Counted from the first letter of the stretch, positions 2,136 to 47,830 are shown. The stretch is 64,000 nucleotides of DNA from a virus (IMGVR_UViG_3300010049_000010:64749-128748); one strand, 5' to 3'. A program made the numbers and translations. The notes: generated by a model from the sequence alone, not told the origin.

Positions 2136-2147
2136 TAACTAATTATT
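2136..2147 (+). promoter_or_regulatory. conserved A/T box TAACTAATTATT directly abutting the ATG
   Basis: The same box abuts start codons at 25882, 39494, 47831, 28838(-), 47334(-) and 2119(-). These genes lack a Shine-Dalgarno site. Confidence 0.45.
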
Positions 2148-2687
2148 ATGAATAGTTTCTATAATGACTTAATCAATAACAATACTTTAGCGCCTCTTCA
2201 AGAGGAACAGCTAAAAGAATATTACAATCCAACAAGTTTAGGTGAGCATGACATAAAGATATTACAATCTATATCACATTCATCAATTCGTGCTATTGAA
2301 ACGACAATCGGAGCCTTAACTCACTTAGCTTCTAATCTTAAGATTTACAAAGATTGTATGATCGCTTCAATTAACTTACAAGCTGAAAGCGCGGACATTG
2401 CGACAAAATACACAAAAGAAATACCACAACAAAGCAACATATTACCCGGCATCGTTTCAGCCCCACAATCATTTGATTTATCTGCAATTAGAACTGATAA
2501 TGAAAGGATGATGAAAATTAAGAAAGATAAGGATAAGATCCAACAGCAAAAAGACACTTATTTAAGAGTGGCTAAAGAAGACGTTAGATTATTTTTATCA
2601 GCTTGGAAAAAATTAAATATTAGCAATGCTGCCTTTGACGAGTTCATTGATAGCTTAAATAAACAGATAACAGATGGGGGTTATTAA
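2148..2687 (+). CDS. hypothetical protein (179 aa)
   Basis: ORF preceded directly by the conserved box taactaattatt-ATG. Confidence 0.5.
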   Translation: MNSFYNDLINNNTLAPLQEEQLKEYYNPTSLGEHDIKILQSISHSSIRAIETTIGALTHLASNLKIYKDCMIASINLQAESADIATKYTKEIPQQSNILPGIVSAPQSFDLSAIRTDNERMMKIKKDKDKIQQQKDTYLRVAKEDVRLFLSAWKKLNISNAAFDEFIDSLNKQITDGGY

Positions 2688-3433
2688 TGAGAACGTTTAA
2701 ACAAATATTAAGAGAAGCAGTAGATTATAAAGATGCAGAAGGTTTTGATATAGATAAACCTTACGTTATTGATAATGAGGGAAATAGGGGAAATATAACT
2801 TTTGATGCGAATGATTATTTTGAGGCTGATGAAGATTCTCAATTCTATGAAGATGATGATGTTATGTTTGGAAATCAAAAAACTGAAAAGTTTAGAATGG
2901 AACACGATGATTTAGATTCAGATTACTGGATGCAGTGCGGTCTTTGGGAACAATTACCTGAAAGTGATGAAGCTGTTTTTGAAGCATTTATTGACGGTGA
3001 AATTGATCAAGAAGAAGCTACTAAAATTCTTGTATTTTCATATCACTGGGAATTAGAAGATGCTGAAAGAGAATTAAATGGTGGCGGTGACGCTCTTGGT
3101 GACAATTATATAAATCATATTAAAGGAAATAGATCACAACAAGCTACTTGGAAAGCTGCGGGCTTAGATGATGATTCTATTGGAGATGGTTCTCAATTTG
3201 ATGATGATATTTATGAAGATGAAGATGACGACTATGATGATGGAACACAATTTGATCCAAACCCAAGAAGTCCAGCAAAATATGATTTGATGGACGACGC
3301 GATGGACATTGACGATATGGAAGATGACTTTTATGATGACGAAGAAGATTATGATATAGGTTCACTTGACAGTGGAGATGGTTGGGATGAATATGACGAT
3401 GACGATGACGATGATGAAGACTGGGACGACTAA
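2687..3433 (+). CDS. highly acidic protein, MRTFKQILRE family (putative packaged internal protein)
   Basis: Its N-terminus MRTFKQILREA is shared with the ORFs at 43845, 44717 and 12967. The C-terminal half is extremely D/E-rich (…DDDDDDEDWDD). Confidence 0.55.
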   Translation: MRTFKQILREAVDYKDAEGFDIDKPYVIDNEGNRGNITFDANDYFEADEDSQFYEDDDVMFGNQKTEKFRMEHDDLDSDYWMQCGLWEQLPESDEAVFEAFIDGEIDQEEATKILVFSYHWELEDAERELNGGGDALGDNYINHIKGNRSQQATWKAAGLDDDSIGDGSQFDDDIYEDEDDDYDDGTQFDPNPRSPAKYDLMDDAMDIDDMEDDFYDDEEDYDIGSLDSGDGWDEYDDDDDDDEDWDD

Positions 3434-4275
3434 TGGCGATATTTAAGTGTGAGGGTTGTAAAAAATCTGAATCCTTTTGTGAAAATGTATGTTCAGAATT
3501 AGATGGTTGGACTTGTGATATTTGTGAAGATGATTTTCAAGCTCATGAAAATGACGTTCCATCTATAGGCGATAAAGTTTTTTGCAGTGAAGAATGCTAT
3601 GAAAAAGGCGTATATAAATATAAATTAGGAGAAAATATGAATAAAGAATCAATGTTCAATGAAATATATAAAGATTCTCTAAGAGAGGGATTTTTTAAAG
3701 ACGCGGCTGCGAGTATTGCGCAAGAACTTCCATTTGATAAGCCTAAACAATGGGCGAAAAAACATTGGAAATCTGCTTATCCAGAAGAATATGCAAAATT
3801 TGAAGCTGATAAAAAAGAAAAAGATAGATTAGAAAGAGAAGCAAAAGAAGCTGAATATGCTGCGCTAGAATTGAAAAGACGTGATGAATATGAAACAAAA
3901 TATCCAGGTAAAAAAGAAGAAAGACTTAGAGATGAAAAAATCAAAGAATTTTTAAAAAGTGGAACTTGGGATGGTTACTTAGGATATAATAAGCCTAATG
4001 ATTGGAAAGCTTATTTAGATGATCATTGGAAAGATCTTAAAGATGAATTTAATCTATCAAGTGAAAAAGCTGTTAAATCAGCATTTGTACGTTTTATGAA
4101 AGAAACTGGTCAAATTTCATCACAAATACATGCAACAGCTTGGAAAGCAATTGCGAATAAAGAACCTTTATATAAAGGCAAGAAACGAGTTAAAATAAAT
4201 GATTATTTAACAGGTGAAGAGCCAACAACATTATCAGAATCATTTGCATCAATTTACAGGAGAAGCAATGGATAA
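3433..4275 (+). CDS. Cys-rich (zinc-binding-like) N-terminus, K/E-rich protein
   Basis: N-terminal cluster CEGCKKSESFCENVCSELDGWTCDICEDD…CSEECYEKG; the start overlaps the upstream stop (ATGA-type coupling). Confidence 0.5.
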   Translation: MAIFKCEGCKKSESFCENVCSELDGWTCDICEDDFQAHENDVPSIGDKVFCSEECYEKGVYKYKLGENMNKESMFNEIYKDSLREGFFKDAAASIAQELPFDKPKQWAKKHWKSAYPEEYAKFEADKKEKDRLEREAKEAEYAALELKRRDEYETKYPGKKEERLRDEKIKEFLKSGTWDGYLGYNKPNDWKAYLDDHWKDLKDEFNLSSEKAVKSAFVRFMKETGQISSQIHATAWKAIANKEPLYKGKKRVKINDYLTGEEPTTLSESFASIYRRSNG

Positions 4276-4894
4276 ACAATTTTTAATTCATAGACAAACT
4301 ATTGGTATATTGGGAATTATATTGCCATTCGCATGTTTATTTTTTGGTATGTTAGATCCGGCAGCAACAGGCGGGTGGTTTCACAGTATGTCAGCTACAT
4401 ATTTTACTAATGCGAGAGATATTTTCGTAGCAGTATTAATGATGGCAGGCGCTTTTATAATTACTTATTCAGGTTATGACTGGAAAGACAGACTTGTAAA
4501 TATATCTGCTGGTATTATGGCATTTGGAATCGCATTATTTCCAACAGCACCAAGCGGGTTAGAAATTGCTAAGATTGGATTGTTTTCCGTTCCTGTTGGT
4601 ATATCTGCTGTATTGCATACTATTTGTGCCGTATTATTTTTTGGATTACTCGCGTTAAACATACTTTGGTTATTTACTAAAGGCGAATCGGGAACTCCTA
4701 AAAAGAAACTTAGAAACTTAATTTATATGATATGTGGTTGGGGGATTGTGGGATCATTCGCACTAACTGCTATTGGACTTATATTTAACTTCCACGATAT
4801 GTGGATTTGGATTATGGAAGCAGTAATGCTTATTTTATTTGGTGGAGCGTGGTTAACAAAAGGAAAAGCTATTAAGATATTGAATGATATCTAA
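4268..4894 (+). CDS. polytopic integral membrane protein
   Basis: About six hydrophobic helices. The start was moved to the ATG for MDKQFLIH, because the track start at 4214 overlaps the previous gene. Confidence 0.5.
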   Translation: MDKQFLIHRQTIGILGIILPFACLFFGMLDPAATGGWFHSMSATYFTNARDIFVAVLMMAGAFIITYSGYDWKDRLVNISAGIMAFGIALFPTAPSGLEIAKIGLFSVPVGISAVLHTICAVLFFGLLALNILWLFTKGESGTPKKKLRNLIYMICGWGIVGSFALTAIGLIFNFHDMWIWIMEAVMLILFGGAWLTKGKAIKILNDI

Positions 4895-4925
4895 CTATCT
4901 ATTATTAAAGGAGCGTTGAGGCATA

Positions 4926-5969
4926 ATGAAAATTCGAGAACTTTTTAAGAACAAAAAAACAGCTCTAATATCAGTCGTGGGGATTGTATTAGTAATATTG
5001 TTTTGTATATGTTTAACTATAATGTATAACATAATGACTATTGAGAAGGATTCTAATTTTGCTGTGCACCAGATATTACAAAATAAATGGTCATACACCG
5101 AATCCTTTATGAGAAAACTGTTGATTGAAAATGCAGAATTAGCGGAGAATTTAGCTGACCAAATTATTTTAGATGCAAGAAGATTCTCAGATGAACAATT
5201 AACACATTATCTTAATACGATAAACTTAGCTGATGAAAATGCATTTAGACCTCTAATTGAAGACGTAATAAAAGGAGTATATTTTAGAGATATACCAGCA
5301 GATTGGAATGATCCTTTCGTAATGATAATCGGAAAAAACAGAGAAGAAGATTCTTTTATTCTAACGGATTTTTCTGAAAATTGTTCAATTGAAGATTATG
5401 CTTCTGAAGGTGAAATCGTAAGATATATGGAAGACGAATACAGATTACATGCAGACCCTGTTTTAGCAAGACATGCATTTAATAATATAATGGATTTTAA
5501 ATCTGGAGAAATTTGGGAAGGCGTAAATTTCTTCCAATTTTTGGACTGGTTACCCAGTGCAGCGAGATTTGAATCCTATGACTACAGAGGATTAAGAAAA
5601 GCGTTCTTTGATAATGATGGTGATTTAAGAAAAACTTTTGGAGCCATTGAAATTTTGACTCCATATTATATTTATAGAGACAGAGATATTGTAGGGAATC
5701 CTAGAATCGTTAATAGACAAATATCAGATACAAGAATTATTGTTGTTGTAAGCGCATTTAATCCTTATGATATAATGGTACGAGATTATGATTTCAATGC
5801 AAGGACGCGACAATATTTACAATCAATCGAAAATATCAGACTCGAACATCAAAAATCAAAAACCTTCTTATTGAAACTTAATCTTCTTTTACTCGTCATT
5901 GATATACTTGGAATCGCCCTAATTTATGCAGTTTTAATCAATTTACGAAAGAAGAGCGGACAACAATAA
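4926..5969 (+). CDS. membrane-anchored protein (N- and C-terminal TM)
   Basis: AGGAG Shine-Dalgarno site 8 nt upstream; TM helices at both ends. Confidence 0.5.
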   Translation: MKIRELFKNKKTALISVVGIVLVILFCICLTIMYNIMTIEKDSNFAVHQILQNKWSYTESFMRKLLIENAELAENLADQIILDARRFSDEQLTHYLNTINLADENAFRPLIEDVIKGVYFRDIPADWNDPFVMIIGKNREEDSFILTDFSENCSIEDYASEGEIVRYMEDEYRLHADPVLARHAFNNIMDFKSGEIWEGVNFFQFLDWLPSAARFESYDYRGLRKAFFDNDGDLRKTFGAIEILTPYYIYRDRDIVGNPRIVNRQISDTRIIVVVSAFNPYDIMVRDYDFNARTRQYLQSIENIRLEHQKSKTFLLKLNLLLLVIDILGIALIYAVLINLRKKSGQQ

Positions 5970-5983
5970 GGAGTGTGATTTAA

Positions 5984-6955
5984 ATGGAACAAGAAGCAAC
6001 GGAGTTACTCAATTTAATAGTAGAAACTAGTACCACTGGTGACATTTCTCAAACTATTATAGTGATTGCACTTGAATTATTATTCTTTCTCGCCGCATCT
6101 TCAATAGGTTTAATATTTAGAAACATGTTGGGAGATAAAAAGTTTAGACCTTGGAAAGATATTGGATTTGTAGTAATCACTACTATTATATTATTCACTA
6201 TCGGAAATTGGGTTAAAACATTAATACCAGACTCAAGATTATTCTTCTTAGTAAGCGCAGTTATTGCAGCATATCTTCCAAAAATATTTATGGCTCCAAA
6301 AAAGGGAAGTATATTCGCTAAAATCGTAGCAGTATTTAATCCTCGATGGGCAGAAGTTATAGAAGAAATACATAAGAAAGACGAGATAAATTACGATTGG
6401 GAAAAACAAGGTGATAGAAGGGGTGCAACATCAGGTACTATAAATAATAGGCGTGCTGAAGACAAAAAAATCACTTTTGATAAAGAAGATTTCATATTAA
6501 AAGAACCTCTCGAAATAGCAAGATATCTTGAACCAACTAATCTCTTTGGAAAAATAGAAGGTGATTGTGTAATATTAAAAGATAATATAGCAACTTTTAA
6601 TTTTTATGGTGCGGAACAAATGGATAATAATGTGTTCAGAATCGCAATACCTGATGAATTAAAAACTTATAAAAATGTAAGAATCTCTTTACGATTAACA
6701 GAAAAGAGAATGATTGAAGCTGGAAAGAAAGTTAAGATACAATTCAAAGCTGGACCTGATAAAGACTTATTACCTTATGATAAGTTTGAATTGCATTTTG
6801 ATGAAGTCAATGATTCTAACAGCCAAGAAATACAGATGAGTAAATTACCTCATGGTGCAGTATACTTTTGTCATAATCGTTATGGACACGGTTCTGGAAA
6901 GCCTGTAGAATATTCTCTTGAAGTTACAATGATACATTTCTTTGACAAAGAATAA
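5984..6955 (+). CDS. membrane protein with a soluble C-terminal domain
   Basis: AAGGAG Shine-Dalgarno site; three N-terminal TM helices. Confidence 0.5.
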   Translation: MEQEATELLNLIVETSTTGDISQTIIVIALELLFFLAASSIGLIFRNMLGDKKFRPWKDIGFVVITTIILFTIGNWVKTLIPDSRLFFLVSAVIAAYLPKIFMAPKKGSIFAKIVAVFNPRWAEVIEEIHKKDEINYDWEKQGDRRGATSGTINNRRAEDKKITFDKEDFILKEPLEIARYLEPTNLFGKIEGDCVILKDNIATFNFYGAEQMDNNVFRIAIPDELKTYKNVRISLRLTEKRMIEAGKKVKIQFKAGPDKDLLPYDKFELHFDEVNDSNSQEIQMSKLPHGAVYFCHNRYGHGSGKPVEYSLEVTMIHFFDKE

Positions 6956-6987
6956 TTCATTAATATGAGCTCTTAAAACTAAATAAT

Positions 6988-9249
6988 ATGGCAAAAGAGA
7001 AATTAAACGAGTCAACATACCAAAGTGGACAAAGACCAAAATCAGAAATATTCAAATCAAGTTTTAATAAAAGATTATCCTCATTGTGGGGCTGGCAAGG
7101 CGTACAGAAAAAAGACGCTCAATCAGAGTTTGAAAAAGTAAATGGACTTAGACTTGTAAAAGTAGATGTTCAAAATGATTCATATAGAGTTAAGCACGCA
7201 GCATTAGGTTCGATATTTAAGTCTGCGCCGTTAGCTACATCGTTAAATAAGTATTTCAACGCTTATGTAAATGAAACGACGCTCGTGTATTCTGACATTG
7301 CAGAAAGACAACAAAGATTAAATGAATTAAGATTTGCTGTTTTAAATGATCCATTTTTATCTCGAGTTTGCCAACTTGTATCAGATGAAGCTACACAATT
7401 AGATGACCAAAATAGATTATTATCAGTAGAGTCACCATCAATACCATTCGTAAATAAATGTTATGAATTATTTTCTCAATGGGGTTTAACGCAACAAAGA
7501 ATTAGCTCAGTTTGTTATGACCTCGAACAATATGGTGAAGCACTTTGGTCACATAGAGTAACGGAGAAAGGCGTAGAAAGCATACAGCCTCTTAAAGTTC
7601 CAGCATTAAAAGAAAGATTAGAATTTAGTGCGGCCCGCATGGCTGAAGTTGTATCTCAAATGACAGGCGAACAAGAAACTATGAAGAATCGTTCTACTAA
7701 AATTGGACGATTAGTAGACCTAATTACAACTCGATCAGGCAGAGATCAACTTTCAGATCTAGATGAAAATTTTGCTGATATGTTTAGCTCAAAATTATTA
7801 GGCTTTGAATTCGCCGATGGAATAATAGTACCACCTTGGTTAATTTCTCACTTCAGATATAGAGCTGATAACTCAGAATTTTTCCCTTATGGAACGCCAC
7901 CTCTTTTAATGGCGCTAGCTCCATTTAAGATGTGTTATTCAACAATGCAATTACAAGGATTAGCGAGAGCGAGTTCTTTCCCAGTTCAAATATATAAAGT
8001 AAAACAAACAGAAGGTGTTGGTGTTGCAACCGCATTTGAAACAGTAAACTCAGTTCGAGAAGATTATGAGAATATCGGAGTAAGCCCACTTTCTAATTCA
8101 CTTGAAGTTTATACTGTCAATACTAAAATTTGGGTGCCAGATGGTCTTCTAGAATTCGAAGTGCAAAAATCTGAAGTTGATATGGACTTTACTGGCGACT
8201 TAGAAATGTATCAGGACAGGGTAGCGACAGCTTGTGGTATTCCGAAAGGATATCTTGACCAAGAGTTTGGTGGTTTTGGACAAAGTGGTATCGCATTAAT
8301 GGAACAATACAAACCATTTGGACGACATGTCTATACTATCCAATCTAGTTTCTTGGAAACGCTCGGACAACTTATAAGATTACATTTCGCAATTACTGGC
8401 GAGTTTGACTACAATATCCCATTCGTATTATCAATGCGTTTCCCTGCTGAAGATATGGGTGATGAAAAACGAGAAGCAAGATCAGCTTCAGTTGAACTTG
8501 CTAACGGTATTATTGAGATGTTACAAGGCGTTCTCGGAATGGAAGAAGGTGAACCACTTCCAGAAGATGTAGTAGCAGATATTTTAAGCAAATACACATT
8601 CTTAGATCCAACAGATTTACAACGATGGATCCGATTATCAGCAATAGCTAAAGCTGCAGCTGCCGCTAACTCAGAAGGAGAGGACGCCGATGATGATGGC
8701 AGTGGAGGGGACGACTTCGGCGGAGATATGGGTGGAGGAGATATGGGCGGAGATGATATGGGTGGCGATGAAGGCGGTGGAGATGAGGGTGGTGGAGACA
8801 TGCTTGAATCTATGTCAAAAGAAGCCAGAACATATTATCTTAAAACGAGAAAATTACTCCAAGAAAAAGAAAATAAAAAATTAAAAGAAAAGAAATTAAG
8901 ACGATTAAAAGAAATAAGTGAAAGATATAATGAAAGTAAAAATGAGATATATTTTAATTTCTTAAAAGAAAATCACTTTACTGAATGGCAGAGACCGGGA
9001 AAAGGCCACGAAATGATGATACCTAAAGTATTACCAACTGGCGTATATAAACATATGTATGAGACTTTTAAAGTATTAACTGATGATGCGTCTAAAAACT
9101 TATTAAGCGGAGCAGGCAGATTACGAGAAAGAGAAATGAGCGTAACTGATATGTTAAATGCGTCTAAACAAGATAATATGACTTTAGATGTTATGTTAAG
9201 CCAGCCTCTTCAAGAAAAAATGACTTCTGAGCTCGATGAAAATCTATAA
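6988..9249 (+). CDS. large hypothetical protein (753 aa) with a GGDMGG low-complexity repeat and a basic coiled-coil C-terminus (possible virion protein)
   Basis: The aactaaataat-ATG box abuts the start. It carries the repeat GGDMGGGDMGGDDMGGDEGGGDEGGGDM and then a KKLKEKKLRRLKE stretch. Confidence 0.5.
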   Translation: MAKEKLNESTYQSGQRPKSEIFKSSFNKRLSSLWGWQGVQKKDAQSEFEKVNGLRLVKVDVQNDSYRVKHAALGSIFKSAPLATSLNKYFNAYVNETTLVYSDIAERQQRLNELRFAVLNDPFLSRVCQLVSDEATQLDDQNRLLSVESPSIPFVNKCYELFSQWGLTQQRISSVCYDLEQYGEALWSHRVTEKGVESIQPLKVPALKERLEFSAARMAEVVSQMTGEQETMKNRSTKIGRLVDLITTRSGRDQLSDLDENFADMFSSKLLGFEFADGIIVPPWLISHFRYRADNSEFFPYGTPPLLMALAPFKMCYSTMQLQGLARASSFPVQIYKVKQTEGVGVATAFETVNSVREDYENIGVSPLSNSLEVYTVNTKIWVPDGLLEFEVQKSEVDMDFTGDLEMYQDRVATACGIPKGYLDQEFGGFGQSGIALMEQYKPFGRHVYTIQSSFLETLGQLIRLHFAITGEFDYNIPFVLSMRFPAEDMGDEKREARSASVELANGIIEMLQGVLGMEEGEPLPEDVVADILSKYTFLDPTDLQRWIRLSAIAKAAAAANSEGEDADDDGSGGDDFGGDMGGGDMGGDDMGGDEGGGDEGGGDMLESMSKEARTYYLKTRKLLQEKENKKLKEKKLRRLKEISERYNESKNEIYFNFLKENHFTEWQRPGKGHEMMIPKVLPTGVYKHMYETFKVLTDDASKNLLSGAGRLREREMSVTDMLNASKQDNMTLDVMLSQPLQEKMTSELDENL

Positions 9250-9260
9250 CTAAATATCTA

Positions 9261-11069: not shown

Positions 11070-11250
11070 ATGGAAGCACTCGTATCCTTTTTTGAACCAT
11101 TTATGGTAATGGTTTGGTTCGCAGGAGTTTATGGAGTCTTCATTGGATTAGCTTGGTGCATTCATCACGCCTATTGGTATATAAGATTATTTTTTCATCA
11201 TTTATTTCAAAAAGACTAATTTAAACTCATTAAATAAGGAGATTACTATA

Positions 11251-12309: not shown

Positions 12310-12331
12310 GTTTTTGATCTCACTAAATAAT

Positions 12332-13683: not shown

Positions 13684-13686
13684 AAA

Positions 13687-13717: not shown

Positions 13718-13729
13718 AATAATTTTAAG

Positions 13730-15089: not shown

Positions 15090-15110
15090 AATATTTAGTT
15101 ACTAACTAAT

Positions 15111-17891: not shown

Positions 17892-17907
17892 TTATAATAA
17901 ATTAACC

Positions 17908-20541: not shown

Positions 20542-20551
20542 ATAAATTAAA

Positions 20552-21304
20552 TTAACTTAATTGAATATTTTCTTTTTTAGATTTTGAACCTTTAACAGGA
20601 ATTTGATTTGGAATAATTGCGCTCTTTTTTGGAACAGTAATAGAAAGCATTCCATTTTCTAATTCAGTTGATGCGTCTTGCAGAGAATATTCATCTGAGT
20701 CTATATAAATATTTATCTCTTGAGTAGTTTCTTTTAAACCTTGACAAATATAGATATAATCTTCTCCAATTAAATCATCATCTATATTTCGAGCAAATAA
20801 TTTGAGCATGAAACCATCTTTAATTATTTGTAGAAATATTCTATCAGAAGTGTAACCAGCAATTCCAATTTCGTAAATAATATTTTCATAATTGTCTTTT
20901 TTAATATTATATGGCAATTTTGAGTCTATTAAATCTTTATCTAGTTTATTTGGAACATTTTTTTGTCTGTGATAAAATTTAATTTCTTCTTCTGTTTGAG
21001 GTTGTATGTTTGGAATGATGTGAACCGCTGGAACTGATTTTACAGTGCCTGGAATTAATTCATCAGTGTTCCAACCATTATTCCAATGACCACCAGTCGT
21101 TCCATTTCTTTGATTATAAAAATCATCGATATGCATTGGATTATAATCTACAATGTGATTATTTTCTGGACGATAAGTCCAATCAGTGTTAGTAGTTACA
21201 CGATAGTGACCTGTTACATCTCCAGTAGTATTTTGATGATTAGACATCGAAACATTTCTACCTTGAGATCCGAATACTGCTTTGAATTTTTCTTTTGTGT
21301 TCAT
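20552..21304 (-). CDS. Hsp20/alpha-crystallin-like protein
   Basis: C-terminal ENGMLSITVPKK matches the alpha-crystallin-domain signature GVLTxxxPK. GGAGGA Shine-Dalgarno site upstream. Confidence 0.45.
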   Translation of the reverse strand: MNTKEKFKAVFGSQGRNVSMSNHQNTTGDVTGHYRVTTNTDWTYRPENNHIVDYNPMHIDDFYNQRNGTTGGHWNNGWNTDELIPGTVKSVPAVHIIPNIQPQTEEEIKFYHRQKNVPNKLDKDLIDSKLPYNIKKDNYENIIYEIGIAGYTSDRIFLQIIKDGFMLKLFARNIDDDLIGEDYIYICQGLKETTQEINIYIDSDEYSLQDASTELENGMLSITVPKKSAIIPNQIPVKGSKSKKENIQLS

Positions 21305-21490
21305 AATTCCTCCTAGCGAATTACTTATTTGTGTGGTCCATTTTACTGCGACCTAATAGTTAGTTAAAATTCGGGTTACCGCGTCCAGATTCCGCCTCGC
21401 GATAAATTCCCCGGACAGATTTCTTCATCCGTTTTTAAATACATCTCTTGTTAACCTTGCTCCCAAGTCGATCGAGAAGTTATTATTATA

Positions 21491-25585: not shown

Positions 25586-25604
25586 TTTAACTCCTGTTTT
25601 TATA

Positions 25605-25859
25605 TTAACTTAAACCTTCTAGGACCATTTTTAAGTTGTCAAGCAAACAAGGTCCATTTTGGCCTTGTCCATTTATTCCAACTGTTTCGAGATATAAAGT
25701 TTCCTCATCTTTTCCGTATTCCCATTCAATAAGAACTGCCCACTGTCCAATCATTCCCCTAACTTTACACATTTCTTGATCGGGAAAATCAGTTGCAGTG
25801 TCAATTACAAATTTTTCGGACAATAAATCTTTTAATTTTAATCTTAATTCATCTTTCAT
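25605..25859 (-). CDS. hypothetical small protein
   Basis: ORF; the A/T box abuts its start. Confidence 0.4.
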   Translation of the reverse strand: MKDELRLKLKDLLSEKFVIDTATDFPDQEMCKVRGMIGQWAVLIEWEYGKDEETLYLETVGINGQGQNGPCLLDNLKMVLEGLS

Positions 25860-25881
25860 AGAGTTATATTAACTAATTATT

Positions 25882-36880: not shown

Positions 36881-36896
36881 AATAATATATAAGATA

Positions 36897-39360: not shown

Positions 39361-39493
39361 ATAATCTATATTAACTTTATATTTTATAAATTTTAGTATG
39401 AAATTTCTTTCCTTTTTAAAGATAAATTTAGAAATGCAAGAATTTGCCGACTAAACGGCTTTTTACAATAGATAATTCATTAAACTAATTATT

Positions 39494-42400: not shown

Positions 42401-43009
42401 AATAAAAATAATGGAAAAAGTGCTTATTTAATTATAAATGTAGATGGAAATCATCTACATTTAGGAAAAAATATTGCAGAATTAAAAATGGATATTAGAA
42501 TTCCAAGTAGCGGTAATATAAATTCTCCTCCTGTTTCTGAGATAATAATGAATCAATCAGAAGCTAGATTTGGAAAATCTACTGAAGCAGTTAGACTTGT
42601 TTTAAATAATTTTAGAAAAAGATATAAATCAAATATTGCTTCATATATTACAAAATTTTTAAATCAAGAAAATGTTACTTTACGTGAATCTTTAAGATTA
42701 TTTGAAGAAGTTTATAATATATCAAATCGTTTATATGAAGATGAAGATGAAGATGATACTCCAGATAATATTAATTTAAAAGGAAGAATTGATGAAAATA
42801 AAGTGAAAGCTTTAAAAGCAAATTTTTATTTAAAATGTTTAATTCAAGAAATAGGTGGAAGTGTTTCTAATAATAATATAAATTCTTTAATAAAAGAGAA
42901 CTTAACTAAAGTTTTTGCACGTGGCATGAAATATAAGATATATTCATTAAGAACAAAATTATTTGAAAGTTTTAATAATGGTGTAGTAAATTATTTTAAA
43001 ATATTTTAG
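39494..43009 (+). CDS. giant protein (1171 aa): N-terminal RNA/DNA-ligase-like nucleotidyltransferase domain, an acidic linker, and about 600 aa of N/K/S-rich low complexity
   Basis: Motif I TIKYDGAP (KxDG), motif IV GEGFMI and motif V KFVKFVDR. The C-terminal half is compositionally extreme. Confidence 0.45.
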   Translation: MYTLRERYEQIKLREDTHSLHVEDSLLKGKDYIERMLGFFNHALEIVEGSDDSSQPRPTIKYDGAPAIVMWSQREDINESYGISTKSLFNNNPKYYGSDEEIDADKDRADSLKIKMKMALKLAAEKIIPEGEIWQGDLLWTAGDIKSITDDGINYVIAKPNTLGYAAPADSDVGERMKNSDIGIVFHTRYKGPLDEVKQSNDVDISECKNIPDWAFIFDAKLPDLRGKVTFDSNASRGLKNSIGELRRKCADLMDHENYDDLVSNEDFINFYMMTLQNHKIDKGEKIDPETFKEELHDWINVKMHKKYNDLSKLKTKAGRDKKRDTILSTSRELHYICRENGDLIHSIADALYWATYIKGILIEQFNKAQEWITKVEMRSGGWKNTSGEGFMISDNDGKFVKFVDRSAFSYFNRSSEVVKGFERITESEENKWNRDERLGKVGLYDDDDWHEAIEDDDEDKNTEVDENEQVIEIETELSVEEIENICLRVLSESLREAFEMVDTDSIEKRLKAIKSDKSVTWVWIEKINKKAKIHYSRAEKKPSGGNWIEVKRKVEMSNSSKKPIDNSERFLINKNNDQNKNLCLIIKNILIPNIEDWSIWKNIGLQISKSDSSSSILVNVWKDDDPLGGNEIEELSLGLKGVDGEDWSCSDNKNKRLSLTYKKFTINFRNTGGGKATVIYFDKNGNLKSIEKSSNKFSDSVITSIQESLTGLFLTMSFNNDKSNYAKYEKILLTIDNPIFVKNLVQKDSSTFNVSGFSNVLNSWRESIKNSSSEIIKRKILGSYKKLSSGQWKIIHPSLYKTDDSYLNSIIDFNPYLSRHLFSNFNYKNIMSRDTANPADIFIINTGTSSYDKSLSYDSLIEDLNNLRKDQLYKKGGELKSLTSVTASTENIRDAFVATLNKYFDAGILIGISLKKTTKNANVIKSATHNSLSENLNKDDLSCFVFNDNKNDTIKSFSFSGPPYLNKQNKNNGKSAYLIINVDGNHLHLGKNIAELKMDIRIPSSGNINSPPVSEIIMNQSEARFGKSTEAVRLVLNNFRKRYKSNIASYITKFLNQENVTLRESLRLFEEVYNISNRLYEDEDEDDTPDNINLKGRIDENKVKALKANFYLKCLIQEIGGSVSNNNINSLIKENLTKVFARGMKYKIYSLRTKLFESFNNGVVNYFKIF

Positions 43010-43018
43010 GAGATTAAA

Positions 43019-43858
43019 ATGAAAAAGATTAAAGAAATTTTAGCACTAGAATCTCCAATAGTTAACGCTTATAAAAAACAGCTCGACCTAATTAAATCTG
43101 CCGAAAAAAGAAGAAAATTAGAAAACTTACTAAGAACAGCAGCTCATAAAAATATATCTGGTCAAGCAAGCTCAACAGGAAAATATCATCCTAAGTTCGC
43201 TAATTCTGAATTTGGCTTGTCAAAACATACTAAAGCAGTAGTTAGAATTGTTCAAGTTATTTGCACAGTATTTGAAGAATTAGACCCTGATGTTATGATT
43301 ATAGCGGCTATCGCACATGACATGTTTAAATACGGAAGTGAAGACGCAGAACATACTTCTTGGGCTCATGCGAAAGACGCAGGAATGGCTTTACATCAAG
43401 TTGGATTAAAAGATGAAGCTAGACTTGTATATTGTCATATGGGAAACTTTGATAAAAAAGCAGCAGCACCAAAAGAATTAGACGAAAAATTATTACATCT
43501 TGCTGATTATATAGCAAGTCAGAAATTTATTAATATCAATTTTGATAAGGACCATAATTTATTGGAGGAAGATATGAAATCATTTATGCAAATATTTAGA
43601 GAAGCTCATCCATATCATGATAGTAATCGGCCAAGAGATAGTAAAAAACATGTAGGGATGCCTAAGTATATAATTCACAATGATTACTTATTAGAAAAAG
43701 ATGGTAAAGAATATTGTGTAGTAGAATATTTTCCAAGCGCATCATTTAATAAAAAGAAACATCATTATAATCCTACGCCAATTTATTCACATTGGTTAGA
43801 AGATAAAAGACTAATTGCACAAGCAGATAAGGCAGTAAAAGAATATGAAGAGTTTTAA
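43019..43858 (+). CDS. HD-domain phosphohydrolase
   Basis: H … HD motif (IAAIAHDMFKYG); paralog of the ORF at 57229..57810 (shared SSTGKYHP motif). Confidence 0.6.
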   Translation: MKKIKEILALESPIVNAYKKQLDLIKSAEKRRKLENLLRTAAHKNISGQASSTGKYHPKFANSEFGLSKHTKAVVRIVQVICTVFEELDPDVMIIAAIAHDMFKYGSEDAEHTSWAHAKDAGMALHQVGLKDEARLVYCHMGNFDKKAAAPKELDEKLLHLADYIASQKFININFDKDHNLLEEDMKSFMQIFREAHPYHDSNRPRDSKKHVGMPKYIIHNDYLLEKDGKEYCVVEYFPSASFNKKKHHYNPTPIYSHWLEDKRLIAQADKAVKEYEEF

Positions 43859-44717
43859 ACAAATATTACGAGAAGCTATAAATCCCTATGGTTCAGATGA
43901 GGGATATAATGATACTTGCGCAATAGCAATATCTCCTAGAAAAGAAGTTTTTTATCTTTCAGCATACCATCAACATGAAGGACTTTTAGAAAAATATTTT
44001 GATGATTTAGAAGGTGATGAATTATTAAATAAATCTTATGAAACAGGTTGGATAAGAATAAGAGTAAGTCATCATAAAAAGTGTATGATTTTTATAGATA
44101 TTTCTAGATTTAATAAAAAAAATTTAGAAACTCTATGGGACTTCTTTATGGATATGGATGATTTAAATTCTCGATTAACGCATTTTGATTCTGAAGATGG
44201 GGGCCCAAATGAATATAGTCCAAATATAAAAAAATGTGAAAATATTTATATTACTGAAAATTATAATGATAAGATTATTACAATAAAAACAAATTTTAAA
44301 GATATTATAAATTTAAAATTAGAAAATCAAGAATATAGATTAAATAATGTTACTGCAAATATAAAACCACAAGAGTTATTAGATAATTATACCTTTGAAG
44401 AAAGAAAAAAAGAAACTTCAAAATTTAAAATGAAACGTAATTTTATTTATATGTTTGATAAACATAATAATCTTTTAAATAAATGTTTACGTTTTGATGG
44501 TTTTGATTTAAGTTATGGAAGGGGCTCGCGTGATCCATCTAAGTTTACTAAAACATACTTAAATAAAAATCTTTACGAATATTGGTTTGGTGAAGCTTAT
44601 GAAGGCAAAAACGCAGAAAAAGCTGAATATGCAATCTTAAATGATATTAAATTTGAAAATTTAGATGAATTAAGAGATTATTTACAAAATGATTTTGATA
44701 TAAAGGATTTAAATTAA
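43845..44717 (+). CDS. MKSFKQILREA-family protein
   Basis: Shared N-terminal decapeptide. Confidence 0.5.
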   Translation: MKSFKQILREAINPYGSDEGYNDTCAIAISPRKEVFYLSAYHQHEGLLEKYFDDLEGDELLNKSYETGWIRIRVSHHKKCMIFIDISRFNKKNLETLWDFFMDMDDLNSRLTHFDSEDGGPNEYSPNIKKCENIYITENYNDKIITIKTNFKDIINLKLENQEYRLNNVTANIKPQELLDNYTFEERKKETSKFKMKRNFIYMFDKHNNLLNKCLRFDGFDLSYGRGSRDPSKFTKTYLNKNLYEYWFGEAYEGKNAEKAEYAILNDIKFENLDELRDYLQNDFDIKDLN

Positions 44718-45202
44718 TGCGAACATTTAAACAGATATTACAAGAAAGCACTGATGAATGGTTTATGACTAAGAAAAAAGTCTATACAATACAAGGAAGA
44801 ATATCTAATAAAACAGAAAGATATAAAAATAAATTAGAAGGTAATTCTTATGATATGTCTGACCCTCAATATGCAGATGATGAATGGGTAATTTTAAAAG
44901 GTACTGTAGGTGAACTGTGGCCTAATACTTTAGCTAAAACTTGTAGGACATATGGGGTAACTCCAGAAGATTTTGTTGAAGGCGAGTGGATTGACTTAAC
45001 TACACAAAAAGAATACGCATTTACAAATTGGGCCAAAATGAATACTGAACATATTGATTTACCAACAATGCATAATACTATGCATGGAAATCCTGGTAGT
45101 TATCTTGTTTGCACATTAGAAGATAAAGAAAAGAAAAATCCTTGGATAATACATGAAGATGTATTTCCTAACACATATTATACTAGGAATGAAGAAATAT
45201 GA
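44717..45202 (+). CDS. MRTFKQILQE-family protein
   Basis: Shared N-terminal decapeptide. Confidence 0.5.
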   Translation: MRTFKQILQESTDEWFMTKKKVYTIQGRISNKTERYKNKLEGNSYDMSDPQYADDEWVILKGTVGELWPNTLAKTCRTYGVTPEDFVEGEWIDLTTQKEYAFTNWAKMNTEHIDLPTMHNTMHGNPGSYLVCTLEDKEKKNPWIIHEDVFPNTYYTRNEEI

Positions 45203-45828
45203 AATTAACAGAATTACAACATGCTAAAAGAGCAGTTATAAACTTTGGTCGACTAAATCCACCAACAATAGGTCATGTAAAATTAGCTCGAGTTATGGCC
45301 GAAGCAGCAGAAGCATTAGACGCAACACCACTTTTATTTCTTTCTAATTCTTATGATGGAATACAAAGCGGGAAGAGTAAGCCGCCATATAAGAATCCCT
45401 TGCCATTCAGTTCTAAAATCAAATACTGTAAAGATGGCATTGGAGAATATGTGAATATTATTGATTCCAGAGTAATGAACTTATATGACGCATTAGCTGA
45501 AGTTTACAGAGCCGGTTATACTGAATGTTATCTTTTTGGTGGTGATGATAGAGCTGATGATTTTGATAAAGTTAAATCATATAATGGAAGCGAGAAATTA
45601 AGAGACAATCAATTTTTTGATTTTAAGATATTAGAAGTAATAAATGCTGGCAAGCGAGATGAAAATAGTAATAACGTTGAAGAGCAAGCTAGCGCATCAC
45701 TATTACGAAAATGCGTAGTAGATTTAGATTATGAGCGTTTTGAACAATTCGCAGGAACAAAAACTTTAACAGAAGAAATGTTTGAAGAAGTTGCTTTAGA
45801 AATGGGTATTGAATTTGATTGGGAGTAA
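45199..45828 (+). CDS. HxGH/ISSTxIR-superfamily nucleotidyltransferase (NMNAT-like)
   Basis: FGRLNPPTIGH matches the (H/T)xGH motif; SASLLRK matches ISSTxIR. Confidence 0.5.
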   Translation: MKLTELQHAKRAVINFGRLNPPTIGHVKLARVMAEAAEALDATPLLFLSNSYDGIQSGKSKPPYKNPLPFSSKIKYCKDGIGEYVNIIDSRVMNLYDALAEVYRAGYTECYLFGGDDRADDFDKVKSYNGSEKLRDNQFFDFKILEVINAGKRDENSNNVEEQASASLLRKCVVDLDYERFEQFAGTKTLTEEMFEEVALEMGIEFDWE

Positions 45829-45839
45829 AACTAAATAAT

Positions 45840-46448
45840 ATGAAATTATTTGAAAATATTTATAATCAATCATTACAAGAAAATTATAAAAAAACTTGTA
45901 GTAATTGTAATAAAAAATTTATATCAAAGATAGATATTTTTGGGCACACACTTTGTCCAACATGTGAAAAATCGGCCGCGAAATGTAAAGTTTGTGGTGA
46001 AAATATGCATGGTATGAAAGGTTGGCCGGAAGAACGAAAACTTGGAAAATGTTCTAATTGTTGGACTAAACAAGATTTGATTACTATTGGTTGGGAGCAA
46101 GATGAAAAAACTAAACGCGATGCGTTGAAAAATGCTGAAAATACTTTTATTAAATTAGAAATTGATGATGGCGATTTTATAATAAACCCTATGTCTTTCC
46201 CTGGTGGTGATGAATGGACTGAAGTTGATGATGGTGAATTTATTTATGAAGGAACAGTTGCTCAATTTATAGATGATATAACAAGCTACTATGATTACAG
46301 TCGTAACTCAGACAGAGAAGTACAAATATTTACTATATCAAAATCAAAGATTGCTGGATATTGTGTTGCAACACCTATTGGAAAAATATTTTCGTTTCAT
46401 AATAGATATGATGAAACGATTGCTTGTAAAGTTATAGAAAGGAGATAA
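45840..46448 (+). CDS. Cys-rich zinc-binding protein
   Basis: CSNC…CPTC…CKVC…CSNC. The start was moved to the ATG abutted by aactaaataat. Confidence 0.45.
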   Translation: MKLFENIYNQSLQENYKKTCSNCNKKFISKIDIFGHTLCPTCEKSAAKCKVCGENMHGMKGWPEERKLGKCSNCWTKQDLITIGWEQDEKTKRDALKNAENTFIKLEIDDGDFIINPMSFPGGDEWTEVDDGEFIYEGTVAQFIDDITSYYDYSRNSDREVQIFTISKSKIAGYCVATPIGKIFSFHNRYDETIACKVIERR

Positions 46449-46450
46449 TA

Positions 46451-46843
46451 ATGAAAACTTTTGCAGAAATATATGGAAAACCATTAAGAGAAATGAAAGG
46501 GAGAATTGAAAGAAAAGAATTTGAAGATGGAACAGTTTCAACAGATTATTCTCCTGAATGGGAAGAAAGCGATGTGTCTGAATATATAGCTGATCTTCAA
46601 AAAGCTTTACCTATGATTGACCCTGAAAAAGTTGCTTCTGTAGCAATGAATAGTTATGACGACCACTGGGGATTCGGTGTTGAAGACGTTGAAAGAGATT
46701 TTGTAGACATTCTTGAAGAAATGGGTATTGAATACCAAGGCGATAATGCTGGTGATGTTTATGAAGATCTAAATAATGTTACGTCTAAATGGTGGAATAA
46801 AGGTGAAGACGTTGAATATGACGACGAAGAGTATGAAGATTAA
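46451..46843 (+). CDS. acidic hypothetical protein
   Basis: ORF only. Confidence 0.4.
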   Translation: MKTFAEIYGKPLREMKGRIERKEFEDGTVSTDYSPEWEESDVSEYIADLQKALPMIDPEKVASVAMNSYDDHWGFGVEDVERDFVDILEEMGIEYQGDNAGDVYEDLNNVTSKWWNKGEDVEYDDEEYED

Positions 46844-47334
46844 TCAATAAAATGGAAATAATATTTAGGGGTTCCTTCAAAGGGAACCTCTACTCGTATT
46901 TGAACATAGTTTAGTTCGTCATCAATATCAACTTCACATTCATAAGTGTCATATCGTTTAACATCCGGTTTCTTTTCAGGTTTATAATTCTTTTCGGAAT
47001 GTTCAAATTCCATATCTTTTAAAATATCATCCAACGAAATTACAGTAGATAATACGTCATGCATATAATCAGCGTCGTTATTTCGAGAGCTGAATACTTT
47101 AGCAGCTCCTTTAGTTTCTCCTCTTAATGCGGCGGAAATTGACCAAAAAAATTCTCTAAATCCTTTTTCAGTTATCATTATATTTCGTCCGTCTTTTGTT
47201 TGAACTTTCTTTCCAAGATGATTTCGTTTAAAATAATTTTCAGCAAATTTATAAGTTTCTCGGAATGATGGATTATATAATTTTTTATCAATTGGCTCAG
47301 CATTTACGCGCTCATAGATTTGTTGGAACGTCAT
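46840..47334 (-). CDS. hypothetical protein
   Basis: tactaattatt-ATG box. Confidence 0.45.
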   Translation of the reverse strand: MTFQQIYERVNAEPIDKKLYNPSFRETYKFAENYFKRNHLGKKVQTKDGRNIMITEKGFREFFWSISAALRGETKGAAKVFSSRNNDADYMHDVLSTVISLDDILKDMEFEHSEKNYKPEKKPDVKRYDTYECEVDIDDELNYVQIRVEVPFEGTPKYYFHFID

Positions 47335-47355
47335 AATAATTAGTAACTAAATAAT
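47335..47355. promoter_or_regulatory. bidirectional pair of A/T boxes (tactaattatt-ATG on the minus strand; aactaaataat-ATG on the plus strand)
   Basis: The two box variants sit back-to-back between divergent starts at 47334 (-) and 47356 (+; a 20-aa ORF, MKLFEQ…). Confidence 0.4.
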
Positions 47356-47427
47356 ATGAAGTTATTTGAACAAATCTCTTGTGAGTGGGATCGAGCTGTA
47401 GAAGAGGATGAAAGTTAATTTACAAAT

Positions 47428-47814
47428 ATGGCAGGACGTAGAAGTTCAGACGACCCAAAATGGGCAGAAACTAAAAAGATAGTCGATAAACGAGATCGAC
47501 GTCAATGCCAGTTTGAGAAATGTTTATCTCTCAAAGAATCATATCAATTAAAAATAGACGGCCCAACTGTATTAGACCGCGCACATATTTTCGCAGCATC
47601 AGCAAGACCAGATCAAATATATAATCCAAAAAATGTAATTACGCTCAGAAGATTTATTCACCAGAGAATGGATGGATATAAAAATCCAATTACGGGTGAC
47701 CCAATAGATTATAATGAAACTATGTTTTGGTGGCATAGAATATTAAAAAAATTTGTTGATGATTATGAGCCAGATGTTGATTATGAGGAACTTCTAAAAG
47801 CCGAGATTAGATAA
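47428..47814 (+). CDS. possible HNH-family endonuclease
   Basis: CQFEKC … RAHIFAAS … NVITLRRFIHQ gives an H-N-H spacing. Weak call. Confidence 0.35.
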   Translation: MAGRRSSDDPKWAETKKIVDKRDRRQCQFEKCLSLKESYQLKIDGPTVLDRAHIFAASARPDQIYNPKNVITLRRFIHQRMDGYKNPITGDPIDYNETMFWWHRILKKFVDDYEPDVDYEELLKAEIR

Positions 47815-47830
47815 ATTTTACTAATTATTT

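Follow-up and report, generated by a model that had tools for sequence, protein, structure and literature searches.

A conserved A/T-rich box fused to the ATG of Shine-Dalgarno-less genes in a giant termite-gut phage: a candidate late promoter for leaderless mRNAs

Late genes of the Bacillus jumbo phage AR9 are read by a non-virion multisubunit RNA polymerase from promoters of the form A-11ACA-(6N)-T-A/G+1, which were mapped by dRNA-seq (PMC5312081; PMC7598289), and the 5′ UTRs of this phage are 26-491 nt long (PMC5312081). The jumbo phage phiKZ has a late promoter, T-3ATG+1, with almost no conservation upstream and with G as the start site, and it makes no leaderless transcripts (PMC8244752). 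A dual gene-start architecture is known from the GeneMarkS-2 ‘group C’ genomes (Actinobacteria, Deinococcus-Thermus) and from the extended -10 middle and late promoters of Thermus phages, in which a promoter box lies close to the ATG of operon-first genes, at a set distance from it, and these genes have no Shine-Dalgarno (SD) sequence, and internal genes have an SD. In poxviruses a late-class initiator (TAAATG) overlaps the ATG. The late promoter of phage T4, TATAAATA (gp55, gp33, sliding clamp), consists of one AT-rich element of 8 bp, has no -35 region and serves the late virion class; it lies at about -13 to -6, centred on -10, with the start ∼6 nt downstream.

Here we compare these systems with an element found in a 64,000-nucleotide stretch (the window) of a 328-kb contig from an uncultivated giant phage of termite guts, which has no cultured relative. 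The initial annotation had described an A/T-rich box fused to the ATG of genes lacking an SD site, and this observation is confirmed, as the box stands at the ATG of many SD-less genes in numbers far above chance. Its consensus, here called box A, is 11 bp long, (A/T)ACTAA-n-TA-w-T. All 12 starts named in that annotation could be verified in the sequence: exact (A/T)ACTAATTATT-ATG precedes 2148(+), 25882(+), 39494(+), 28838(-) and 47334(-), the variant (A/C)ACTAAATAAT-ATG precedes 6988(+), 12332(+), 45840(+) and 47356(+), the degenerate boxes read AACTAACTATT at 2119(-) and AACTAATTAAAT (12 nt) at 30382(-), and at 47831(+) the box is present but is separated from the ATG by one extra T. We add box copies at 15089(-), 15111(+) and 56844(-), degenerate copies at 59347(-), 61071(-) and perhaps 9261(+), and two copies away from an ATG, at 21355-21365(-) and 54908-54918(-); the motif thus extends beyond 47830, where it had been said to end (e.g. 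54908-54918(-), 56844(-), 59347(-) and 61071(-)). A second motif, motif B (GTTAATnTA), heads the replication genes, which carry it instead of box A. The sites of both motifs in the window are:

2137..2147, plus strand: box A AACTAATTATT, adjoining ATG 2148 (179 aa) and heading the plus-strand unit 2148-13683
2120..2130, minus strand: box A AACTAACTATT, adjoining ATG 2119 (455 aa); divergent partner of the box at 2137, with 28 bp between the ATGs
6977..6987, plus strand: box A AACTAAATAAT, adjoining ATG 6988 (753 aa; weak match to the T4-type portal family)
12321..12331, plus strand: box A CACTAAATAAT, adjoining ATG 12332 (211 aa; capsid-targeting-like N-terminus)
15090..15100, minus strand: box A AACTAAATATT, adjoining ATG 15089 (147 aa)
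15100..15110, plus strand: box A TACTAACTAAT, adjoining ATG 15111 (187 aa), 21 bp from ATG 15089
25871..25881, plus strand: box A AACTAATTATT, adjoining ATG 25882 and overlapping the opposite-strand motif B of ATG 25859
28839..28849, minus strand: box A AACTAATTATT, adjoining ATG 28838 (587 aa)
30383..30394, minus strand: degenerate 12-nt box AACTAATTAAAT, adjoining ATG 30382 (homing endonuclease, phrog_655)
39483..39493, plus strand: box A AACTAATTATT, adjoining ATG 39494 (1171 aa, DUF6267) and heading the plus-strand unit 39494-46843
45829..45839, plus strand: box A AACTAAATAAT, adjoining ATG 45840 and directly preceded by the TAA stop of the upstream gene
47335..47345, minus strand: box A TACTAATTATT, adjoining ATG 47334 (164 aa, LPD3 domain, capsid-targeting-like N-terminus)
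47345..47355, plus strand: box A AACTAAATAAT, adjoining ATG 47356 of an ORF of only 19 codons (47356-47415)
47819..47830, plus strand: box A TACTAATTATT with one extra T, before ATG 47831 (1090 aa)
56845..56855, minus strand: box A GACTAAATAAT, adjoining ATG 56844 (73 aa), with the upstream gene's stop inside the box
59348..59358, minus strand: degenerate box AACTATTTAAT, adjoining ATG 59347 (510 aa)
61072..61086, minus strand: motif B overlapping a near-box, GTTAATCTAACTAAT, adjoining ATG 61071, with a terminator hairpin and T tract directly upstream
21355..21365, minus strand: box A AACTAACTATT without ATG, followed by AGG, 50 nt upstream of the SD-led gene start 21304
54908..54918, minus strand: box A AACTAATTATT without ATG, followed by AGGAAT, 90 nt upstream of the SD-led gene start 54817
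20548..20556, minus strand: motif B GTTAATTTA; ATG 20541 (DNA polymerase A, large part) 9 nt past GTTAAT, no SD
17898..17906, minus strand: motif B GTTAATTTA; ATG 17891 (DNA polymerase A, C-terminal part) 9 nt past GTTAAT
39367..39375, minus strand: motif B GTTAATATA; ATG 39360 (radical SAM protein) 9 nt past GTTAAT; divergent partner of the box at 39483
25601..25609, minus strand: motif B GTTAATATA, then an 18-nt leader with AGGAG and ATG 25585 (391 aa)
36082..36090, minus strand: motif B GTTAATTTA, then a 20-nt leader with GGAG and ATG 36064 (DNA ligase)
47414..47422, plus strand: motif B GTTAATTTA; ATG 47428 (HNH-like, 128 aa) 8 nt past GTTAAT

The fused form ACTAAnTAnT-ATG (ACTAANTANTATG) occurs 13 times in the window compared to 0.09 times expected from dinucleotide shuffles, and ACTAANTANT occurs 17 times (6.0 expected), with 13 of the 17 adjoining an ATG and one more lying 1 nt off. 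Conservation in the logo is limited to -11 to -1, with positions -10 to -6, -4, -3 and -1 invariant or nearly so and none upstream of -12; in 80 family gene starts chosen by ACTA at -10 to -7 alone, A-6 is found in 75 and T-4, A-3 and T-1 in 79 each. The absence of SD sites from box genes also holds, as none of 13 has a core (at least 4 nt of a GGAGG-like purine-rich core, 5-10 nt upstream of the start) compared with 34 of the 68 genes having neither motif (Fisher's exact p = 4.5e-4). Against the promoter reading, 5′ ends of box genes proved at least as structured as those of the remaining genes. A scan of the whole window gave no Rfam family at or above its gathering score. Inside genes the box core is not depleted in either the sense (11 observed, 5.4 expected) or the antisense orientation (6 observed, 7.2 expected), where a strong autonomous promoter might be avoided.

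Comparison with related contigs marks box A as a hallmark of the clade of the window phage: among 2.9 million viral contigs the double-box pattern occurs in this clade only, at 12 loci in 5 contigs. Of 110 unique family boxes, 76 stand directly against an ATG whose ORF has 40 aa or more, the use of ATG being by construction of this count, and 8 more lie at +1 or +2. At the junction orthologous to the 187-aa/147-aa gene pair, both genes and both boxes are kept in 8 lineages, with a spacer of 1-9 nt. The box-to-ATG spacing is 11 nt in the window and in L003, 12 nt in L004 and 14 nt in L007, a drift that is the behaviour of a core promoter element and not of start-codon context. Relatives keep the portal N-termini MAK/MAD/MAN, even where an SD takes the place of the box, and the targeting signature stands at the very start of three box genes; by these sequence comparisons the box-adjoining ATG is the true start.

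The genomic surroundings of the boxes point to a function in the DNA. All five divergent junctions in the window (2119/2148, 15089/15111, 25859/25882, 39360/39494 and 47334/47356) have box A or motif B on each side, box A being present at all five, and in four of them the gap between the ATGs is only 21-28 bp. A hairpin and T tract lie 9-12 nt ahead of the motif and ATG at 61071(-) in the window, in L131 (the window's own contig) and in L172, which leaves no room for another promoter. Boxes without an ATG are followed directly by a leader that begins with an SD, as in AACTAATTATT followed by AAGGAGAATATACA-ATG in L015, or with AAGGAATAATA-ATG (L167) and GAGGAGACACAAA-GTG (L004) as the sequence after the box, and boxes tied to GTG or TTG starts have an SD leader instead (L004, L008). 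Six of the 15 window boxes lie within same-strand gene arrays, some overlapping the stop codon of the preceding gene, an arrangement that an RNA-level signal would fit equally well.

If +1 is assumed to be the A of the ATG, box A reads AACT(-11 to -8)-N6-T(-1)-A(+1) and matches the AR9 late promoter in three of four bases and in its full geometry. Both are compact elements with no -35 region, a tetranucleotide at -11 to -8 (AAC identical) and, on that assumption, a purine at +1. Both also come from jumbo phages whose early genes have an AT-rich promoter class of their own (a putative one here), and in both some genes appear to have early and late promoters in tandem (here 21304 and 61071 in the window, and L142); motif B is also present in the intergenic region of the 21304 gene, upstream of the box at 21355..21365(-) and ending at 21490. 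Under the AR9 rule transcripts of L007 would start at a purine 3 nt ahead of the ATG in 3/3 cases. In L004 the same rule gives a pyrimidine start, which speaks against a promoter unless the spacing there is N7. The differences are that the fourth base is T here and A in AR9, that the six ‘N’ positions are conserved here (AAnTAw), that transcription is predicted to begin here at the A of the start codon and not 26-491 nt ahead of it, and that AR9 requires uracil in the template strand whereas the window phage encodes ThyX (21491-22129) and so presumably has thymine DNA. AR9-like polymerase genes were likewise not found in the sequence sampled here. The search combined Pfam and PHROGs, each run on the window and on selected large ORFs from relatives, with signature-motif scans and sequence comparisons to solved structures. 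No multisubunit or single-subunit RNA polymerase, sigma factor or gp55-like factor was found in the sampled sequence, which comprised ∼84 kb of the 328-kb contig of this phage together with parts of relatives, nor did these ∼84 kb or the 471 kb (redundant) of family loci yield a split beta/beta′ or a gp226/gp68-like specificity subunit.

The TATG of the phiKZ late promoter is present at every ATG-fused box, and both are jumbo phages in which the late promoters (candidate ones here) show hardly any conservation further upstream; however, applying its G start here would place the start codon outside the mRNA. Neither of the phages that share this late-promoter geometry makes leaderless mRNAs, a counterpoint to the promoter reading. 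The dual gene-start architecture of group C and the Thermus phages appears to hold here as well. Their extended -10 type fits motif B well (xGnTAATnT + 6-7 nt + ATG), which has the feature of sigma-70-type leaderless promoters, a Pribnow box (TAnnnT) whose end is 6-8 nt from the ATG, and from which transcription would start at the ATG as well. Box A differs in having no Pribnow box (no TAnnnT at -12 to -7) and in being conserved right up to -1. We rejected it as a sigma-70-type leaderless promoter, as -12 to -7 reads wAACTA with A and not T at -7 in 15/15 sites; consensus sigma-70 promoters are not enriched (92 observed, 95.5 expected). Half of the phage genes have a strong AGGAG, so the host is not obviously rich in leaderless mRNAs. 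The box variant ACTAAATA has 6/8 bases of the T4 element, and the head biology here looks T4-like (weak portal match, capsid-targeting-like N-termini). A T4-type gp55 promoter was nevertheless rejected because ACTAAATA lies at -10 to -3, and T4 spacing would put the start at ∼+4, inside the coding sequence; gp55 and gp33 homologues were not detected in the sampled sequence. Poxvirus late promoters embody the same concept of a late-class initiator overlapping the ATG, but they belong to eukaryotic viruses of the cytoplasm, whose sequence and machinery are unrelated and whose mRNAs have poly(A) heads.

The initial annotation had also offered a translational regulator site and an RNA-processing site as alternatives, and both are weakened by the computational tests. 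The box could act in the 5′ UTR or intercistronic RNA, recruiting the ribosome or a phage initiation factor in place of an SD and resembling an A/U-rich or ‘epsilon’-type enhancer. The fixed register with the AUG, the missing SD sites, the boxes between same-strand genes and the undepleted antisense copies (as expected if RNA sense alone counts) would all suit such a signal. Some boxes read TTAACT, which also occurs within TTAACTTTA, the epsilon enhancer of T7 gene 10. We nonetheless consider this reading unlikely: an SD substitute would be redundant directly before an SD leader or 50-90 nt upstream of SD-led genes, the invariant C at -9 is untypical of A/U-rich enhancers bound by ribosomal protein S1, and lineages that keep the core differ in how far it lies from the AUG (11, 12 or 14 nt). 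It would further need a separate promoter, for which the 21-28 bp junctions leave only the interior of the neighbouring gene and the terminator sites only the sequence upstream of the terminator, and which the lack of conservation upstream of -12 does not support.

Cleavage of a polycistronic RNA at the box by a phage or host endoribonuclease, e.g. between T(-1) and A(+1), would yield mRNAs with a 5′-terminal AUG or strip upstream RNA; it explains the exact register and the absence of SD sites and is compatible with boxes inside operons and directly before SD leaders. Its chances appear slim, as it requires readthrough from inside the opposite gene at all five divergent junctions as well as through terminators, has no nuclease candidate tied to the motif, and would make the likeness to the mapped AR9 geometry a coincidence. 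We give very little credence to the box being an operator, often in inverted pairs (TTAGT..ACTAA), for a repressing or activating phage regulator with the promoter elements elsewhere. The double boxes at divergent junctions do form palindromes, and unrelated bacterial contigs with the double-box pattern hold perfect operator-like palindromes, yet the majority of boxes are single and non-palindromic, and a dimeric binder would hardly tolerate the 1-16 nt range of spacers seen between paired boxes. An operator would also give no reason for the strict register that the boxes keep with the ATG and with the base at which SD leaders begin, and a separate promoter has no room.

The initial suggestion, that promoter and translation start coincide and yield (near-)leaderless mRNAs of one temporal class, is the best fit to all computational tests and is supported by them. 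From the divergent junctions, the terminators, the ATG-less boxes ahead of SD leaders, the shift in spacing between lineages and the AR9 geometry we infer that box A is a promoter element, and we think it fairly probable that the 11-bp box is a compact phage-specific promoter for leaderless first-gene mRNAs of the late class. Transcription would start at the A of the adjoining ATG or up to ∼4 nt upstream, which would make the mRNA of the first gene leaderless; the first gene of a unit would then be translated from a 5′-terminal AUG without an SD, and later genes in the unit would keep ordinary SD sites. Motif B, at the head of replication genes, looks like an early or middle promoter. Box-led units are enriched in virion-type genes: all eight proteins with a capsid-targeting-like N-terminus are encoded in them, three by box genes themselves, the portal-like gene has a box, and a tail-fibre gene in L007 has the box variant. 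Encoding portal, tail-fibre and head-targeted proteins gives these units a late-class look, and on this gene content box A most likely defines the late (virion) class of this phage.

Box A, an 11-bp element of the form (A/T)ACTAA-n-TA-w-T, was found at every start for which the initial annotation had named it, although the ATG at 47831 lies one base further from the box and the ATG at 47356 opens a mere 19-codon ORF. Copies at 15089 (–), 15111 (+) and 56844 (–) had been overlooked, as had degenerate copies at 59347 (–), 61071 (–) and perhaps 9261 (+) and two copies away from any ATG. In the window, ACTAANTANTATG occurs 13 times against 0.09 expected, and the 10-mer alone, with no ATG required, has 17 copies where 6.0 are expected, 14 of the 17 being at an ATG or 1 nt from one. 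A logo of 15 sites, numbered with the A of the ATG as +1, has A-10, C-9, T-8, A-7, A-6, T-4, A-3 and T-1 near-invariant and no conservation upstream of –12. The proposal that genes with the box at their ATG (box genes) lack a Shine-Dalgarno (SD) site is borne out by the counts, as an SD core of at least 4 nt precedes 0 of 13 box genes vs 34 of 68 genes with neither box A nor a second motif, GTTAATnTA (motif B; Fisher's exact p = 4.5e-4). There is no avoidance of the box core within genes, which gives no support either way, and 5′-end folding does not differ between box genes and other genes, the former being no less structured. Sigma-70 consensus promoters are not enriched in the window, there is no Rfam match, and the literature on the motif strings yielded only unrelated work, mostly on yeast expression vectors.

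An exact-protein look-up placed the window on a 328,413-bp metagenomic contig (ENA ERZ27264051 k141_7313039), and the window therefore belongs to an uncultivated jumbo phage. It has no nucleotide match to GenBank phages, its portal and 1090-aa proteins have no match in them, and protein matches to cultured relatives are distant only (DNA polymerase A and DUF6267). In IMG/VR the portal protein retrieved relatives with 76%, 68%, 55% and 50% identity on contigs of up to 329 kb. The 76% relative (L003) shares the 11-nt box, both at orthologous starts and at others, in the 68% relative (L004) the distance from box to ATG is 12 nt in 5 of 6 cases, and in the 50% relative (L007) AACTAAT stands 14 nt from the ATG. 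The family loci hold 110 unique copies of ACTAAnTAnT, with 76 of them directly before an ATG whose ORF has 40 aa or more, 8 at +1 or +2, 4 directly before an SD leader and 22 in other settings. When family starts were anchored on ACTA at –10 to –7 only (n = 80), the positions outside this anchor were A-6 in 75, T-4 in 79, A-3 in 79 and T-1 in 79 of the 80. An orthologous divergent pair of genes (187 aa and 147 aa) has kept both boxes in eight lineages, while the spacer between them varies in sequence and in length (1–9 nt).

Searched with a single box, the viral contigs gave an overwhelming number of chance matches. The palindromic double-box pattern CATANTANTTAGT-N(0-16)-ACTAANTANTATG proved specific, with 12 loci among all viral contigs, all on five contigs of this clade. 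JGI metagenome matches with ORFs on both sides came from few datasets, Ga0099364 and Ga0123353 among them; a MAG derived from Ga0099364 carries the label Th196P3, in which Th196 denotes the higher termite Termes hospes and P3 a hindgut compartment (PMC7024585). Many other genome and metagenome matches, perfect palindromes without flanking ORFs in unrelated bacteria, were set aside. Fitting the palindromic search pattern also surfaced an unrelated perfect inverted repeat, CATACTAGTTAGTATG-N(7-10)-CATACTAACTAGTATG, in Methylovorus genomes and high-G+C metagenome contigs (loci L144, L147, L170, L171, L177, L181, L182, L193 and L194); it lies 5′ of a ~178-aa ORF in four of them (L144, L147, L181 and L193) and looks like an operator site.

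At each of the window's five divergent junctions, both sides carry box A or motif B, and in four cases just 21–28 bp separate the ATGs. This argues for a promoter, because each unit must have one and the box is the only conserved sequence available. At 61071 (–) in the window, at L131 on the same contig and at L172 in the family, a terminator hairpin with its T tract ends 9–12 nt before motif and ATG, and the downstream transcript must therefore begin within ~20 nt of the ATG. Where the box stands away from an ATG, it is immediately followed by a purine-initiated leader that opens with an SD sequence, as in three family cases:

final T of the box, then AAGGAGAATATACA-ATG
final T of the box, then AAGGAATAATA-ATG
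final T of the box, then GAGGAGACACAAA-GTG

In the window, the final T is followed by AGG.. 50 and 90 nt upstream of SD-led genes. A box directly before an SD sequence is unexpected for an SD substitute and expected for a promoter with its +1 at the first base beyond it. The distance from core to ATG differs by lineage while the core itself is kept, which we also count in favor of a promoter. Judged by the encoded N-termini, the ATG of the box genes is the true start, because portal N-termini are conserved even in relatives with an SD site instead of the box, and because three box genes open with a conserved N-terminal signature. We thus consider it fairly probable that box A is a promoter with its transcript start at the ATG: transcription of the unit would begin right behind the box, at the A of the ATG, and give a leaderless mRNA.

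Box A may instead act within the RNA, either as an initiation signal independent of an SD site or as a processing site, but both would require promoters that are not visible in the sequence, and both fit poorly with the box-then-SD arrangement, the adjacency of terminators and the lineage-specific spacing. The palindromic pairs would suit an operator, whereas the single boxes, which are the majority, and the variable spacer would not. Position rules out a T4-type late promoter geometry, from which RNA would start within the coding sequence, and a sigma-70 –10 element, as position –7 lacks a T. Position –26, where nothing is conserved, rules out an archaeal TATA box, and a three-frame stop-codon block is ruled out since it holds for the TAACTAAATAAT variant only.

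The nearest known relative of box A is the late promoter of the jumbo phage AR9, A-11ACA-(6N)-T-A/G+1, whose start was mapped by dRNA-seq and primer extension (PMC5312081; PMC7598289). The geometry of the box, AACT(–11 to –8)-N6-T(–1)-A(+1), is that of the AR9 promoters, with the +1 here being predicted, and we count this match in favor of a promoter. Applied to L007, the AR9 rule predicts a +1 of A, A or G three bases before the ATG; applied to L004 it would place the start on a pyrimidine if the spacing is not one base longer in this relative, and this we count against the promoter. Box A differs from the AR9 element in being fused to the start codon and more information-rich. In AR9 and in the jumbo phage phiKZ late promoters have been mapped and no leaderless mRNAs were found (PMC5312081; PMC8244752), and fusion to the ATG is therefore no known property of that system. 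In a dual model for leaderless-rich bacteria, a promoter box lies at a fixed short distance from the first-gene ATG and SD sites serve internal genes (PMC6028130); motif B fits this model, whereas box A is unlike a Pribnow box.

Motif B, mostly with an A before it, heads a second gene set, again with nothing conserved upstream, and it is conserved across the clade. Its copies in the window include:

47414–47422, plus strand, motif B
61078–61086, minus strand, motif B
57816–57824, minus strand, motif B
56614–56622, minus strand, motif B
39367–39375, minus strand, motif B
36082–36090, minus strand, motif B
32532–32540, minus strand, motif B
30695–30703, minus strand, motif B
25865–25873, minus strand, motif B
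25601–25609, minus strand, motif B
20548–20556, minus strand, motif B
17898–17906, minus strand, motif B
others, minus strand, motif B

GTTAAT lies 8–9 nt from the ATG where there is no SD site or 18–23 nt from it where there is one (family-wide, 15 at 8 nt, 7 at 9 nt and 9 at 18–23 nt). Written as xG(–14)nT(–12)AATnT(–7), the motif reads like an extended –10-like element, and at the 8-nt spacing the canonical start would coincide with the A of the ATG. The two motifs stand in tandem, B then A, before 21304, at 61071 and in the family locus L142. The genes headed by motif B (both DNA polymerase parts, ligase, a clamp-sized 391-aa protein, radical SAM genes and an HNH-like gene) are of replication-type functions. 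The HNH-like gene (47428–47814) follows directly on the 19-codon ORF (47356–47415), which lies behind a perfect box, opens with the N-terminal signature of the eight proteins below (MKLFEQI) and looks like a gene remnant from a mobile endonuclease insertion.

Eight otherwise unrelated window proteins, all eight in units led by box A, open with M-(K/R)-(T/S)-F-x-(Q/E)-I-(L/Y)-x-(E/Q), and one of them contains an LPD3 'polyvalent protein' domain. Their ORFs start at:

2687, plus strand
12332, plus strand
12967, plus strand
43845, plus strand
44717, plus strand
45840, plus strand
46451, plus strand
47334, minus strand

T4 internal protein III has a similar capsid targeting sequence of 10 residues (MKTYQEFIAE), which includes an L/I-x-E protease site. 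Residues 4 and 7 of this targeting sequence direct head targeting, and residues 8 and 10 cleavage (PMC9026906). By this resemblance the eight proteins are probably packaged in the head or ejected. The portal-like gene also has the box, a unit with an M23 peptidase and a PmgG-like gene is box-led, and a tail-fibre gene of L007 is led by a box variant. Because these genes and those of the signature proteins are all box-led, we infer that box A would mark the late (virion) class, with motif B marking a replication class.

No RNA polymerase, sigma factor or gp55/gp33-like protein was found in the window, in 10-kb flanks on each side or in the sampled relatives. No enzyme that reads the box emerged from Pfam and PHROGs searches of all window ORFs and many large ORFs of the relatives, nor from searches of ten proteins against sequences of solved structures; 471 kb of family loci, scanned for DFDGD, HGxKG and T7-type motifs, gave negative or uninformative results. 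When viral contigs were scanned for NADFDGD in AT-rich codons, the matches listed were mostly giant-virus contigs. Four small, unrelated proteins of the replication cluster end in (D/S/Q)LFD(D/E)(E/N)EL:

30694–31140, minus strand
31137–31448, minus strand
32540–33061, minus strand
33098–33316, minus strand

Clamp-binding tails are known from T4 gp33, gp55 and gp43. The shared ending could be such a tail, and if it does bind the clamp the four proteins would be candidate late-transcription factors. PHROGs gave nothing for any of them, nor did PDB sequence searches for the 148-aa and 173-aa proteins.

The window has 31% G+C, tightly packed ORFs on both strands and no tRNA genes. The genes recognised in it are:

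16983–17891 and 18436–20541, minus strand, split family A DNA polymerase
ATP-dependent DNA ligase, ThyX and PD-(D/E)XK nuclease
two B12-binding radical SAM proteins
52947–53951, NadR
55719–56381, PnuC
11287–12309, solute-binding protein
RNA ligase with kinase
M23 peptidase
T4-type portal, weak match
DUF6267 protein, also found in T4-like cyanophages

Two small ORFs separate the polymerase parts, motif B stands directly 5′ of each of their ATGs, and the relative L138 has its DNA polymerase A split likewise. A homing endonuclease (29738–30382, minus strand; phrog_655, E = 1e-41) with its own slightly degenerate box sits amid the replication genes. Three small minus-strand proteins (22958–23371, 24035–24400 and 30393–30677) have the N-terminus MKIRNGFVSNSS(S/A)SSF in common; the first two, the only ones scanned, match phrog_7397 (function not assigned). 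A G+C-rich hairpin at 13687–13706, with T tracts on both strands at the convergent junction 13683/13730, looks like a bidirectional terminator. Past the right edge of the window, genes for a Cpn60/GroEL-like chaperonin and a SAM synthetase follow on the same contig (L129, 1–293 and 2783–4432), and the 329-kb relative has a gene for a hybrid sensor histidine kinase that includes a receiver domain (L141, 7631–9748).

Taken as one, these readings would describe a termite-gut jumbo-phage clade in which an 11-bp, ATG-fused promoter gives obligately leaderless mRNAs of the virion genes, being read by a new polymerase or specificity factor that current profiles miss, with a second, also leaderless-positioned promoter class for replication genes, as a programmed, clade-wide strategy in an SD-using host; that the whole of this holds we regard as unlikely. 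The clade that carries the box has no cultured member. The box yields a clade-specific search pattern and is short and information-rich enough for direct in vitro testing. As an 11-bp rule it would serve to call gene starts and transcription units in these genomes, whose box-led starts will be placed wrongly by standard gene finders relying on a ribosome-binding site. If the promoter reading is true, it points to a polymerase or specificity factor that reads the box, and the promoter geometry recalls the template-strand-reading enzyme of AR9. If the box does start transcripts at the ATG, this clade would show clearly that whole temporal classes of a phage can be built on leaderless expression in an SD-using host.
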